IMG/VR virus record: IMGVR_UViG_3300025875_000005 | Coordinates: 32,899 to 96,898 of that record | Strand: one strand, 5' to 3' | Length of the DNA: 64,000 nucleotides | Source of the DNA: a virus | Part shown: positions 1,146 to 64,000 of the stretch, piece by piece | Numbering within the stretch: the stretch's first letter is position 1 | Layout of the letters: each line of letters begins with the position of its first letter | Notes under the pieces: model-generated | Seen by the model: the letters and a program-made list of their open reading frames with translations, nothing else | What the model was told of the DNA's origin: nothing | Database searches by the model: none | Program-made: the position numbers and the translations under genes

Positions 1146-2327
1146 TCAAGCCCATCCGTTTTTCTTGATTTCGTTGTAGACCACCTCAGCAACCTCAGAA
1201 TGGGACACCCGACCATCCGCTTTGGTGTTGACGCATCCGGCAACTGATTGCGCCAGGACGCTCAGCACCTTGACCGTGGGCTCATCTCCCATGACCGAGG
1301 TGTAGACCTTGTGGGCAAAGAGCTTGGCGCTAATCATCTCCAGCTGGGGAATCTGGAAGACGGCATCTACCCGTCCCTTGCGGTAAAGCTCTGGGGGGAT
1401 GGCGCTCTTGTCGTTGGTCGTCATGACCACGAAGACCCGAGACTGATGCTCTGCGAGCCACCAGAGAAGCTGGGAGAGGATGCGAGAGGTCGTGCCCCCA
1501 CCATCGCTGCCCCCGCTGAAGATCTTCTCCACCTCATCAATGAGGAGGACGCATGGTGACTCTCGGTCTACCAGGGAGAGGATCTTGGCAATCTTTCCCT
1601 CAGAGACTCCGATGTATTTGTCCAGGCTGCTAGAGACATCCATCCGGTAGAGGGGAACCCCAAGCTCATTGGCGATGGCCTTCGCACCCATAGACTTGCC
1701 TACTCCAGGAGGGCCCTCAAGCATCACGCCACGTGGAACAAGCTTGGCGTGGACTGCCTTGTGGAAGAAGCTCTTGTTGAGGTCCATCCATGCCTTGAAC
1801 TTGTCCGGCCACACGTAGAAGTCATAGGAGGTGTCTTCCAGGTGAAGGCCCTGGGAGCTTCCATAGAGGCTTGAGCGGGTGCGACGGACTTCCATGGGGA
1901 GGGCGTTGCCCGCCCGTGCCTCAGTCAGCATCAGGATTTCCTGGACTGCCTTGATGGAGAGACCCCTCAAGACAAGTGCCAGAGCGGGAATGTCTGCCGG
2001 AGGGATAACCTCCTCCAGGGTAGCAATCAGGAGGGGCTCAGGGATGGGCAGGACCCCGGCGTCAAAGATGAGGTCACTTCTCTCGGAGGCGTTCACACAG
2101 ACCAGCACTCCATTGGTCTCACGAAGGTGGACGTAGAGGTCGGGGGTTACAGTCTCTTCTTCCTGGGTCCAGTAGAGGAATCCTCCGATGGGGTTCTTCT
2201 GTGCCTTGGGAAGCCGGATGACCTTCTTCCCCCCGTTGTAGTGCGCAAGCACTGACTCCAGATTCACTAGATCATCGGTGGAGACCCCGATAATCGGCAT
2301 TCGCGCCTTCAGCGCTAACTCGAACAT
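1146..2327 (-). CDS. AAA+ ATPase (Ycf46-like)
   Basis: Walker A GPPGVGKS, Walker B LLIDEVEK, TTN sensor and PPELYRKGRVD SRH. Start moved to ATG 2327, behind a GGAGTGGG RBS. Confidence 0.85.
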   Translation of the reverse strand: MFELALKARMPIIGVSTDDLVNLESVLAHYNGGKKVIRLPKAQKNPIGGFLYWTQEEETVTPDLYVHLRETNGVLVCVNASERSDLIFDAGVLPIPEPLLIATLEEVIPPADIPALALVLRGLSIKAVQEILMLTEARAGNALPMEVRRTRSSLYGSSQGLHLEDTSYDFYVWPDKFKAWMDLNKSFFHKAVHAKLVPRGVMLEGPPGVGKSMGAKAIANELGVPLYRMDVSSSLDKYIGVSEGKIAKILSLVDRESPCVLLIDEVEKIFSGGSDGGGTTSRILSQLLWWLAEHQSRVFVVMTTNDKSAIPPELYRKGRVDAVFQIPQLEMISAKLFAHKVYTSVMGDEPTVKVLSVLAQSVAGCVNTKADGRVSHSEVAEVVYNEIKKNGWA

Positions 2328-2404
2328 GCACCCACTCCATTGATTGACGAACTGGAGTGAAGGTACATGCCTCCGCAACTGATTGCAAGGATGCCGCTAC
2401 CCTT

Positions 2405-2812
2405 TTACGGGTTGGAGGGCCGCGCCGTGACCACCAGCGTCCGCTTCTCCACTGCCGTCTTAAGCTCGTTGATGGCGTTCACAATCTGATTCACGTCCCT
2501 GTCCGTCCGGATGGCCATGATGTGGGTCGTGTCGATCTTCGACTCCATCTGTCCCATCTTCTCCTGTAGGGCCTTCTTACCCTCGTTAGCCTCCGTGACA
2601 TGCATCTTGAGAAGCTCTTGAGTGAAGTCCGCTCGGTTACGCGAATCGACGTGAGCGGTCACTGCCCCAACGAGGGCGCTGGCTATTGCCAGGAAGAGTC
2701 CCAGATCTTTGAACGATACGTTCATGGTGAACCCCTGGGCCCATTGTGATAGAGCCAACAGCGGAACTTTACCCGACTTGCGATTCAATTCCAAAGTTGC
2801 CATAGCTGTCAC
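2405..2812 (-). CDS. Small membrane protein with coiled coil (possible holin or lysis accessory)
   Basis: One hydrophobic segment LGLFLAIASALVGAV followed by a coiled coil; last gene of the tail operon. Confidence 0.45.
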   Translation of the reverse strand: MTAMATLELNRKSGKVPLLALSQWAQGFTMNVSFKDLGLFLAIASALVGAVTAHVDSRNRADFTQELLKMHVTEANEGKKALQEKMGQMESKIDTTHIMAIRTDRDVNQIVNAINELKTAVEKRTLVVTARPSNP

Positions 2813-62092: not shown

Positions 62093-62674
62093 TTAGCCTC
62101 TTGTGCGAGAAATCTCCCGGACGATTCTCCAGGCGTAATTCGAACGGATACCGTACTTGGCCCCCAGGGTCGTGAAGGAGTAGGCCCCTGAGGCGTAGTC
62201 CTCTCTCAAAGCCTGGACTTCCTCGTTGGAGAGCTTGGCCTTGAAGTGATTCTCCCCCCGCTTGATGTTGGCCTTCCGCTGGGTCATCCCTTCTACCAGG
62301 GAGTAATGATTAGGGTTGATGCAATGCCTGTCCTCGCACTCCCGAGCAAGCGCGTGCCCCTCAGGGATAGGCCCGTAGAAAAGCTCCCAGGAGAGCTTCC
62401 AGACTTCCACAGAGGTCTCCCCCCTATCAGAGAGGCGAGCGAAGGTCGTGACCCAAGACCAGCAAACAGAATCATCCTCAGGAGGCTCAAACAACTCCAT
62501 GAAGCGAGTAAGAGCGGGCCTCAGGGGCTTGTGGATGGGGGTCTTGTTGAGAGACTCCCGGGCTTCCCGCTTGTAGTGGGCAGGGCACAATCCTTTGGCT
62601 CCCCCGGATGCTTTGGAGTTTCCCTCACACCCCTGAATCAGGCAGGGGGCCCAGTAGCTGTTCCGGTCTTTCAT
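62093..62674 (-). CDS. Degenerate HNH endonuclease-like protein with C-terminal HTH
   Basis: CWSW..SWELFYGPIPEG..C....CINPNH..GENHFKAKL..V..LR; the usual catalytic His is absent. Confidence 0.7.
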   Translation of the reverse strand: MKDRNSYWAPCLIQGCEGNSKASGGAKGLCPAHYKREARESLNKTPIHKPLRPALTRFMELFEPPEDDSVCWSWVTTFARLSDRGETSVEVWKLSWELFYGPIPEGHALARECEDRHCINPNHYSLVEGMTQRKANIKRGENHFKAKLSNEEVQALREDYASGAYSFTTLGAKYGIRSNYAWRIVREISRTRG

Positions 62675-64000
62675 AGGGCCTCAGGCGAAGTAGGGGGTCT
62701 CAAACTTGAAGCCGTGCCCGTAGAGCTTGTTGACCATAGCGTCACGGTAGGGATGCCCGTATTCGAGGGCAAGGACAGCGTGGATTGCCTTCACGCAAGC
62801 GACTCGGGTCTGCCGTTTGGGTTCCACGAAAGCGATGTACCGGAGGGTATCCATCGCACAGGTCTTCATCTGCTCGTTGAGGGTTTCCATTGTTTGCCAC
62901 TCCTTGGCCAGCGACAACTAGGTTCTACACCCTAATCCGTTAGTTCGTCAAGCACTACCACTCGCCTTCTTTATCGAGGGTAGGGAAGAAGGCCTCTTTG
63001 ACTGCCTCCCGTGCTGCCCAGACCCAGTTCTCCGGGGCCTCAGGGTAGTGTGCCCAGTCGAGAATCTTGAGGCACTCGACCTTGAAGGCATCTGCCGTCC
63101 CCCCGGTGTAACGGGCCCAGTCGATCAGGTTGATGCGGTAGGCTTCCCGAAGCTCAGCGAGGTACTTGGGGGGATAGAGGCTTTCGACTTCCGCTTCCGT
63201 GGTTCCGAACATTGTGCCACTCCTTGGCAGTGCTACGAGAGGAGTTATACACCCTCTCTCTAGGATTCGTCAAGCGCTACTTTGCACTTGATTGCGGAAA
63301 AGCGGGGCCAAAGGTGCGCGGGAAGCCTAGTGCCTGAAGCTTATCGTCCAGCCCACACACGCACAGATCCTTCTTGCGCTTGGTTCCGCACCCCATGCTG
63401 GGCATGTGCTTGGCGTAGTCGTTGAAGGCGTGCCTGAGGTCATGCATGTACTTCTGTACCCGCATCCACTCATCTTCTCCGTCAATGCGCTCCTTGACCA
63501 CAGCGTCCACAACTCTGATTTCTGCTAGGGGAAATTTGAGGGGGTGCTTGATCATAGCCTCAGACCTTCGCAGGGAAGATGCCGTTGTTGACGCTCCACT
63601 CGGCCATACCGCTGTGGAAGCCAATGAGGGGTGCCTTGATGAGCGTGCCGACCCGGTAAGCGTTCCCGTGGACAGTGGGGATCTCCTCAAGGAGGGCAAC
63701 CCTGACGCTCGCCTTGTTGACCTTTACGACCTTGGCCGCCCCACGGTAAGCCGCATAGCTGTTCGTCCAGCGGACTTCGACTTCCATCCCGGGGGTGAGG
63801 GTCTTCTGGAGGTTGATCGCCGCTTCAAAATGGGGATTCATTGTTTGCCACTCCTTGGCTGACTTCGATTCAGAAGATACACCCCCCTGACCTAGTTCGT
63901 CAAGGGGTCCCTCAAAGAAACTAGCGGGCGTAACCGCCCTTGGCGAGAGTAGCCCAGAGACGGCGGGCGACCGTAGGGGTCATCTCCTTGACCCAGTGGG

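Follow-up and report, generated by a model that had tools for sequence, protein, structure and literature searches.

Dozens of repressor sites lie genome-wide, also in short intergenic gaps, in the Cluster A mycobacteriophages (the stoperators of L5 and Bxb1) and in P1 (the C1 operators); both kinds of site are asymmetric, and the stoperators are oriented with transcription. Prophage N15 carries four dispersed centromeres. The Cluster O mycobacteriophages (Corndog) contain 34 copies of a 17-bp dyad repeat in a genome of ~70 kb, ~40% of them intergenic and the others within genes, with no meaningful orientation, four near promoters and none in the host; a dimeric binder was predicted for them and the comparison with stoperators was drawn (Cresawn et al. 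2015, PMC4351075). In the KorB-OB system of IncP plasmid RK2, palindromic operators of ~13 bp lie around a 60-kb replicon, promoter-adjacent or kilobases away, and are bound by KorB, a ParB-family HTH protein with an N-terminal CTPase domain that slides as a clamp with partner proteins (PMC11790492). KorB doubles as a plasmid-partition protein (PMC13768133). Here we describe an array of short palindromes in the virus record IMGVR_UViG_3300025875_000005 of IMG/VR, of which we analyzed positions 32,899 to 96,898 (64,000 nucleotides, hereafter the window), together with the rest of the genome and its relatives. The palindromes are, on balance, probably duplex-DNA sites of a symmetric and presumably dimeric phage-encoded protein, with a protein designated P0121 as the candidate; the binding, the dimer and the biological role are what we infer from sequence comparisons and a structural model.

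The palindrome GCAMYYRRKTGC had 32 matches in the window, from 1240 to 63295, while dinucleotide-preserving shuffles of the window averaged 0.27 matches and never exceeded 2. These are the same 32 coordinates as in a preliminary description of the window, made from its letters alone, which had proposed that the copies are selected as DNA and are the target of a dimeric protein. The whole genome contains 52, on average 1.86 kb apart. The information content extends weakly beyond the 12-mer by one or two bases per side (CTGCAAYYRRTTGCAG), to ~16 bp (CTGCA...TGCAG). The central dinucleotide is CA or TG in 51 copies (Y-CA/TG-R) and CG in one. Sites inside called open reading frames (ORFs) numbered 28, against a mean of 2.0 and a maximum of 6 in 300 within-gene synonymous-codon shuffles, and they use all three frames, the commonest of which encodes x-Q-S/L-V/I-A. 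The failure of the codon shuffles to reproduce the count and the use of three frames argue that selection acts on the DNA rather than on the protein, as the preliminary description had it, and selection on the palindromes as DNA sequence is thus supported. Relative to transcription, CA and TG centers were nearly balanced (23-24 vs 28-29), as were the one-sided C/G half-site variants (6 vs 6). The lack of orientation bias of either points to a symmetric protein that reads duplex DNA, and argues against an RNA element.

The phage genome is a 96,898-bp virus record whose termini overlap exactly by 127 bp, which indicates a circular assembly of ~96.8 kb; its GC content is 58%, and the minus strand bears nearly all genes. 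By portal protein it falls near the Delepquintavirus group (Summit, DLP5, DLP3), at ~48% identity, and siphophages of Rhodobacter, Rhizobium and Vibrio are farther away. Megablast of 10 kb of the phage against a phage collection gave no match. The portal as a single-sequence query for related loci found nothing; a portal alignment did recover loci. We compared 80 IMG/VR loci collected with the portal alignment and 80 with a P0121 alignment, ~160 metagenomic relatives in all (handles beginning with L), and gene content in nine motif-bearing complete genomes (among them those with handles beginning with G), including a distant Paracoccus element; the completeness of G005 is 97% and that of G007 100%. 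A prophage locus of Reyranella massiliensis was left out, as it is largely N-masked and showed no motif.

The palindrome array is a trait of the clade and not a peculiarity of one genome. The Stenotrophomonas phage Summit has 33 copies of TGCAAT-CA/TG-ATTGCA, and most of the ~160 IMG/VR loci carry the motif, at 0.2-0.6 per kb and over a GC range of 39-64%. Among cultured phages we counted 6 copies in SIO-2, 9 in VH2_2019, 17 in Aeromonas HJ05, 16 in Rhizobium RHph_TM16 and 50 in L338C. Some lineages have variants in which both half-sites are changed together, namely GTCCAAT..ATTGGAC in G001 and TGCAGT..ACTGCA in G002, and elsewhere TGCACT, TGAAAT, TGACAT, TGCAGA, GGCAAT and TGCAAC; in GCAAC lineages any dinucleotide is allowed at the center. 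This joint change of the half-sites, together with the absence of strand or orientation bias, agrees with the dimeric-protein target proposed at the outset. In a helicase gene, a gene for a PPDK-like protein, a MuF-like gene, a tail gene and the ortholog of a Summit phosphatase the same aligned codon holds a site although the proteins share just 45-50% identity, which again speaks for selection on DNA. A site near the end of a ParB-nuclease-like gene upstream of terminase is shared at the aligned position with Summit (in the TGCAAT form) and G002, where it is the sole hybrid AAT/AGT site of the genome. Other coding sites have turned over between relatives.

The 5.4-Mb assembly of Paracoccus sp. 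MKU1 has 56 copies of GCAACNNGTTGC, of which ~51 are on a single phage-like contig of 96 kb, at ~500 times the density in the rest of the genome; at least for this Paracoccus relative, the equal density in the host that the preliminary description had raised as a possibility is not what is found. In some relatives one asymmetric hybrid site recurs many times: L163 has five copies of TGAAATCAATTGCA, RHph_TM16 repeats GCAAC-AT-ATTGC and the L009/L128 contig repeats GCACTCAATTGC. A simple homodimer model leaves the recurrence of one hybrid site unexplained. The literal motif was absent from the searchable literature, keyword searches gave no description for the present phage clade, and it is missing from the paper on DLP3 (PMC7326821), so it seems to be unreported for these phages.

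The candidate reader P0121 is a protein of 273 aa encoded at genome 19601-20422 (minus strand), ~12.5 kb before the window start, where the replication/recombination module ends. It is the sole predicted DNA binder among the 13 genes common to the nine complete genomes, the others being those for terminase, portal, capsid protein, protease, polymerase, two helicases, a RecA-like protein, two resolvases, an exonuclease and an AAA ATPase, and it is conserved as deeply as the replication and virion genes. Its orthologues are annotated as 'hypothetical' in DLP5 (DLP05_067), DLP3, Summit (CPT_Summit_066), SIO-2 (VPEG_00074) and L338C (L338C_074). The family comprises ~150 proteins, of which the listed members are all unnamed or 'hypothetical' and many are on 80-120-kb contigs, and tblastn matches were confined to phages of Stenotrophomonas, Vibrio, Rhizobium, Rhodobacter and Aeromonas. 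An AlphaFold (AF2) model from a 44-sequence alignment had a predicted local distance difference test score (pLDDT) of 83, with only ~55 residues preceding the helix-turn-helix (HTH) domain. In VIA-align, residues 40-175 of the model scored Z 7.9 against the ParB DNA-binding domain (DBD) with parS (6s6h), 7.6 against Spo0J (1vz0), 7.4 and 6.6 against KorB on its operator (1r71 and 8qa8) and 4.3-4.6 against SopB, P1 ParB and VirB, while residues 171-217 matched the ribbon-helix-helix (RHH) domain of antitoxin MazE9. Foldseek gave 6s6h a probability of 0.85-0.95 and ranked the same ParB entries high, at weak E-values, and a protein atlas returned lead-level matches only (DUF3102 / ParB-HTH clusters, 0.83). 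Judging from the model, it is likely that P0121 has a ParB/KorB-type HTH fold. Of 45 typed loci, 18 have a palindrome immediately upstream of the P0121 gene, compared with ~14% expected, an arrangement typical of an autoregulated DNA-binding protein. The gene directly upstream of P0121 (genome 20507-21211, minus strand; 4508-5212 in locus L084) encodes a 234-aa basic protein (pI 9.8) with a Lys/Ala/Pro-rich tail like those of histone H1 or AlgP and no family match, which could be a second, non-specific DNA binder.

A link between P0121 and the palindrome is suggested by a helix, G-W-T-K-L-K in this phage, that varies with the half-site and lies ~26 residues beyond the classical recognition helix. 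In KorB, too, residues outside the classical HTH contribute to specificity. The last K of the helix pairs with A at base 5 of the half-site in 41 of 41 pure cases (distinct proteins, typed loci), and no K-bearing P0121 protein occurs with a pure non-A motif at that base. An R at this position pairs with C (L130, L144/145, L160), and S, Q or A pairs with G (G002, L164, L166); in addition, K-A-S goes with TGAAAT and S-K-A-K with TGCAAC. On a tree built without the helix columns the exceptional lineages are scattered and represent 5-6 separate events, and a naive 2x2 count of helix residue against base, which ignores phylogeny, gives ~4e-5. In a forward test the helices of five cultured phages were read before the motif scan: the GWSKAK helix of HJ05 and L338C predicted TGCAAC, which was found in 17 of 17 sites in HJ05 and in all of the listed ones among 50 in L338C. 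We regard the co-variation of helix and base as suggestive rather than proven.

The placement of the sites is far from indifferent to genes, contrary to the earlier view that they are spaced regardless of gene boundaries: 14 of the 32 sites in the window (~44%) fall in the ~13% of it that is non-coding, as do 24 of 52 in the ~13% non-coding DNA of the whole genome, and many occupy the few bases that separate a stop codon from the next ribosome-binding site (RBS). The near-regular gaps reported before were recovered between 19.5 and 63.3 kb, where they measure 1.18-2.68 kb with a single exception, which is 343 bp and not ~0.5 kb; three gaps of 4.5-4.8 kb span large tail genes. The gaps have a coefficient of variation (CV) of 0.49, compared with 0.97 under uniform placement and 0.98 under a gene-aware null that keeps the intergenic and coding numbers and the real gaps and genes (P<2e-4 for both), so the spacing in this genome is far more even than chance, as the preliminary description had it. 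Gaps are also under-dispersed in Summit (CV 0.43) and G004 (CV 0.64) and more weakly so in the sparse genomes G001-G003 (P 0.016-0.044). This is evidence that the spacing of sites is under selection in several genomes. Even spacing as a by-product of gene structure was ruled out by the gene-aware null for this genome, Summit and G004. A ~2-kb period as a constant of the clade was likewise ruled out: mean gaps across relatives range from 1.8 to 6.7 kb, and a '2-kb lattice' is therefore a trait of this genome and some relatives. Two other stretches show a denser pattern. In G007, at 81.5-87.4 kb (L239-L240) and downstream of the P0121 gene, ~22 palindromes lie 60-560 bp apart, about one per small-gene junction, and in the remainder of that genome the spacing is 1.3-5 kb. 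Before the window, at genome 3200-6900, there are ORFs on both strands with low GC at third codon positions and no convincing genes, with palindromes every 0.9-1.1 kb and several TTGACGAA promoters. The sites of the window are as follows, in window coordinates; every gene given by coordinates is on the minus strand.

1240..1251, GCAACTGATTGC, within the AAA-ATPase gene 1146-2378 (PHROG), peptide LAQSVAG
2375..2386, boundary, directly 5' of the RBS and start of gene 1146-2378, followed by GGAGG-c-ATG
7179..7190, within the 1297-aa tail gene 6528-10421
8710..8721, within the same tail gene
10252..10263, near the 5' end of the same tail gene, palindrome extended to ctctGCA...TGCagag
14967..14978, intergenic, between genes 14994-19079 and 11153-14944, ~10 nt before the RBS
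19483..19494, within gene 19243-19794
21402..21413, codon 18 of gene 21002-21460, aligned position kept in Summit, G003 and G004
23000..23011, intergenic, upstream of gene 22533-23003, after a T-run
24778..24789, middle of the 448-aa head-module gene 24115-25461
26182..26193, intergenic, 6 nt past the stop of gene 26200-27318, then a terminator-like hairpin
28317..28328, boundary, upstream of gene 27439-28320
29579..29590, intergenic, fills the gap from a stop codon to the RBS of the zeta-like kinase gene 28594-29568
31001..31012, codon 120 of the MuF-like minor head gene 29773-31365, aligned position kept in G004
33161..33172, intergenic, upstream of the portal gene 31366-33102
35738..35749, near the 5' end of polA, 33452-35833
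37553..37564, codon 102 of gene 37218-37862, aligned position kept in Summit, whose ortholog is annotated as a tyrosine phosphatase
39244..39255, within gene 38988-39476
39587..39598, 343 bp from the preceding site, in a small ORF of uncertain status
40960..40971, codon 389 of the PPDK-like gene 40180-42129, aligned position kept in Summit and G004
42687..42698, within gene 42533-44008
44518..44529, intergenic, immediately past a stop codon
46475..46486, intergenic or boundary
48105..48116, in overlapping ORFs on both strands, coding status uncertain
50786..50797, the CG-centered site of the window, in the ribonucleotide reductase small-subunit gene 50269-51231
53166..53177, within gene 53090-53416
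54622..54633, intergenic, immediately past a stop codon
56218..56229, within gene 56129-56515
58832..58843, intergenic, 8 nt upstream of the -35 box of a minus-strand promoter of the TTGACGAA type (offset -21)
60305..60316, intergenic, immediately past a stop codon
61489..61500, intergenic, with a stop codon 5 nt upstream and then the next RBS
63284..63295, intergenic, 9 nt upstream of the -35 box of a minus-strand promoter of the TTGACGAA type (offset -22)

The promoter-like element TTGACGAA is distinct from the palindrome and consists of cTTGACGAA, 13-14 nt and GGTGTA(G/T)AA. The genome has 27 copies, all on the coding strand and clustered in small-gene regions, 14 of them in the window at 38980-63273 on the minus strand (e.g., 58822, 59230, 61016 and 63273) and 13 before it. 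At four of the 27 a full palindrome sits at a fixed offset (-21/-22) on the upstream side of the -35 box, and partial copies occupy this place at a few others. These four make some regulation of initiation plausible, while 48 of the 52 palindromes are not at TTGACGAA promoters.

In the mechanism that we propose, each P0121 monomer would read one half-site (TGCAAY in this phage), with the G-W-T-K-L-K helix over bases 3-6, and the RHH-like C-terminal part could mediate pairing. Occupied sites, which take up nearly all intergenic gaps that can be used and, where long genes leave no gap, lie within the genes, would form a chromosome-wide array acting as a global organizer or regulator. At the few promoter-adjacent sites and at its own gene P0121 might act in a KorB-like manner, and at the remaining sites the bound protein may anchor bridging or compaction. 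From the spacing constraint, each site would seem to serve a limited stretch of DNA. This, together with the deep conservation of P0121, favors an array of bound dimers as organizer and global regulator, similar to KorB-OB but without a CTP clamp. A bolder version is possible and we put it forward tentatively, as rather less likely than the binding itself: a ParB/KorB-fold protein without CTPase may build a periodic nucleoprotein scaffold, a 'phage chromatin' anchored every 1-5 kb even in essential genes and core to replication, packaging or defense evasion, instead of a network of lysogeny repressor sites.

Several results weigh against this account. The classical recognition helix of the P0121 family, RKAxYLIxIY, does not vary with the motif, and as the specificity element it was ruled out, since identical helices accompany different motifs. 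Three lineages with changed half-sites, L155 (TGACAT), L132 (GGCAAT) and G001 (TCCAAT), keep K-L-K, so that one helix at best explains some half-site positions. The independent-pairs test gave p 0.125-0.25, with six supported pairs of which three or four went in the expected direction and none in the opposite one. Regarding the fold, the ParB-family scores in VIA-align were above those of unrelated rows, but a Z below 8 is middling for a helical model; Pfam gave no family in any of the 44 aligned members, and the P0121 profile had no match among PDB sequences. In the genome there was no match to the ParB_N CTPase domain (PF02195) at E<=1, nor to ParA with the one model tried (PF13614); with P0121 lacking a CTPase domain and the genome lacking a ParA match, ParB-style sliding cannot be assumed. 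Some loci with P0121 homologues have no clear motif within 20 kb (L118, L143, L146, L169). The gaps of G005, G007 and the Paracoccus element are not under-dispersed.

The correlation with P0121 would reflect shared ancestry if the palindromes had a different symmetric reader, be it a MerR/excisionase-like HTH protein, another phage protein or a host factor, and the non-significant independent-pairs test is in line with this. The genome does encode a MerR/excisionase-like HTH protein, at 24587-25015 (minus strand) between the helicase and RecA genes (8588-9016 in locus L084), assigned by PHROG to 'transcriptional regulator', and the gene is syntenic in this phage, Summit, G001, G003 and G004 while its HTH is variable. 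The family was, however, not detected in G002, G008, G005 (28-30 sites) or G007 (53 sites), nor in 29 of 86 loci, and as a universal binder it was ruled out, being undetected in two essentially complete motif-rich genomes (G005 and G007). A host factor is improbable, as the motif shifts between phage lineages and is ~500-fold rarer in a host genome. Altogether we consider a different reader unlikely. Somewhat less probable still are enzyme targets, that is, sites of T5-type site-specific nicking, base modification or protection from cleavage, where the regular chemical marks would be the feature under selection. DNA of DLP3 resisted all 15 restriction enzymes tried, which indicates modified DNA in the clade (PMC7326821), the genomes have a PPDK-like/phosphatase module and relatives such as Summit have sugar-pathway genes, and a YR center is a flexible step often used in base flipping or cutting. 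Yet if 15 unrelated enzymes fail to cut, the modification would seem to be global and not one of 14 bp, the Paracoccus element has 49 sites without a PPDK module, the center can be any dinucleotide in GCAAC lineages, and symmetric nicks on both strands would break the genome.

The frequent location of the sites in stop-to-RBS gaps fits a role as recombination linkers at gene junctions for module exchange, comparable to lambdoid boundary sequences or the promoter-early stem-loops (PeSLs) of T4-like phages, and so does the 6-kb region of G007 with a site at nearly every small-gene junction; in Cluster O two indels are flanked by repeats (PMC4351075). Still, about half of the sites are within conserved genes, some at conserved codons, and neither under-dispersion against a gene-aware null nor co-variation with a DNA-binding protein is expected of passive microhomology, which makes this explanation very improbable. 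We give hardly any credence to an element acting in RNA, as a small hairpin in long minus-strand transcripts that signals processing or termination. Nearly all genes are on one strand, many sites are intergenic and some adjoin terminator-like hairpins, as such an element would have it; the stem, however, has just 4-6 bp, the variants GCAC...TTGC and GCAA...GTGC break pairing, the center and half-site variants show no orientation bias, and in-ORF sites are in all frames.

Other genes of this phage have features of their own. The MerR-like protein has a strongly conserved N-terminal motif, W-Y...R..R-Y..D..Y-R; its synteny extends to many relatives, while it went undetected in an entire subclade (G005, G007). 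Before the window, a gene at genome 26405-27247 (minus strand; 10406-11248 in locus L084) encodes a 280-aa protein of an unknown PHROG that has a zinc-ribbon-like motif (Cys-x2-Cys) and ends in an acidic tail, …DDYDSHL; by its sequence it looks like the single-strand DNA-binding protein of the phage. In the window, a module at 36416-42129 comprises the gene for a PPDK_N and phosphoenolpyruvate (PEP)-utilizer protein without the usual C-terminal barrel, adjoined by two genes whose Summit orthologs are annotated as tyrosine phosphatases; the module is present in eight of the nine compared genomes and missing from the Paracoccus element, and a role in DNA modification is possible. A zeta-toxin/AAA_33-type kinase gene (28594-29568) is located in the head-gene module, with the MuF-like gene on one side and the protease gene on the other, and no homologue of it was found in the five genomes compared. 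Pfam searches with 30 proteins of the replication and early regions were mostly empty.

Dispersed palindromes that cross genes have been known since 2015 in one mycobacteriophage cluster, and the same kind is shown here in a larger and more diverse clade. Some of its members are in culture, namely phages of Stenotrophomonas, Vibrio, Aeromonas and Rhizobium (and of Rhodobacter, by homology only), which makes experiments feasible. New here are a named candidate protein, a residue-to-base rule, evidence for selection on spacing and a host-genome control. If P0121 coats or organizes the genome, a ParB-fold protein would be working without a CTP clamp and selection would be writing a DNA code across coding sequence, and a 'phage chromatin', if true, would concern siphophages of 80-120 kb that form a widespread clade. 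If P0121 instead represses globally, this would bear on the temperate, plasmid-like lifestyle of DLP5 and DLP3, which are proposed therapeutic phages; DLP5 is reported to persist as a plasmid-like 'phagemid' (PMC5834331), and silencing in the plasmid state is a possibility.

Compared with the known systems, the 14-bp outline TGnAAnYRnTTnCA is like that of LacI/GalR operators, and the preliminary description had noted a LacI/CcpA-type shape. This is a resemblance only: the typical central CG occurs in just one of 52 copies, and a six-frame search of the whole genome for the LacI-type HTH (PF00356) gave no match at E<=1, while control genomes matched. Unlike stoperators, the sites are symmetric and free of orientation, and unlike the fast-evolving immunity specificities of stoperators and C1 operators, the motif is kept across deep divergence (portal identity down to 32%). 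With parS/ParB and sopC/SopB they share short palindromes with arms of 6-7 bp that are read by a ParB-fold HTH dimer, the reader here being a candidate based on a model; they differ in having 14-54 sites genome-wide and not a few near the origin, and in lacking matches to a CTPase domain or ParA. The likeness to KorB-OB goes further, with palindromes dispersed over the replicon, four of them promoter-proximal and the rest distant, and a P0121 model that aligns to the KorB DBD; the differences are that KorB is a CTP-dependent clamp with lock partners (KorA/TrbA) and P0121 has no ParB_N match, that there is no ParA match, and that the sites are four times more numerous and many are inside genes. 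Calling the array an undescribed system was therefore an overstatement, given the published Cluster O repeats (PMC4351075) and the KorB-OB network (PMC11790492). The Cluster O repeats differ in sequence, TGTTCGG-N3-CCGAACA with a 3-bp spacer, and belong to an unrelated phage clade with Actinobacteria hosts, their report proposes no binder by co-variation and gives no spacing statistics (PMC4351075), and tblastn with P0121 found no homologue in any mycobacteriophage. In its layout, however, the pattern described here is nearly identical to theirs: tens of copies of an inverted repeat, both intergenic and coding, free of orientation and absent from the host genome.

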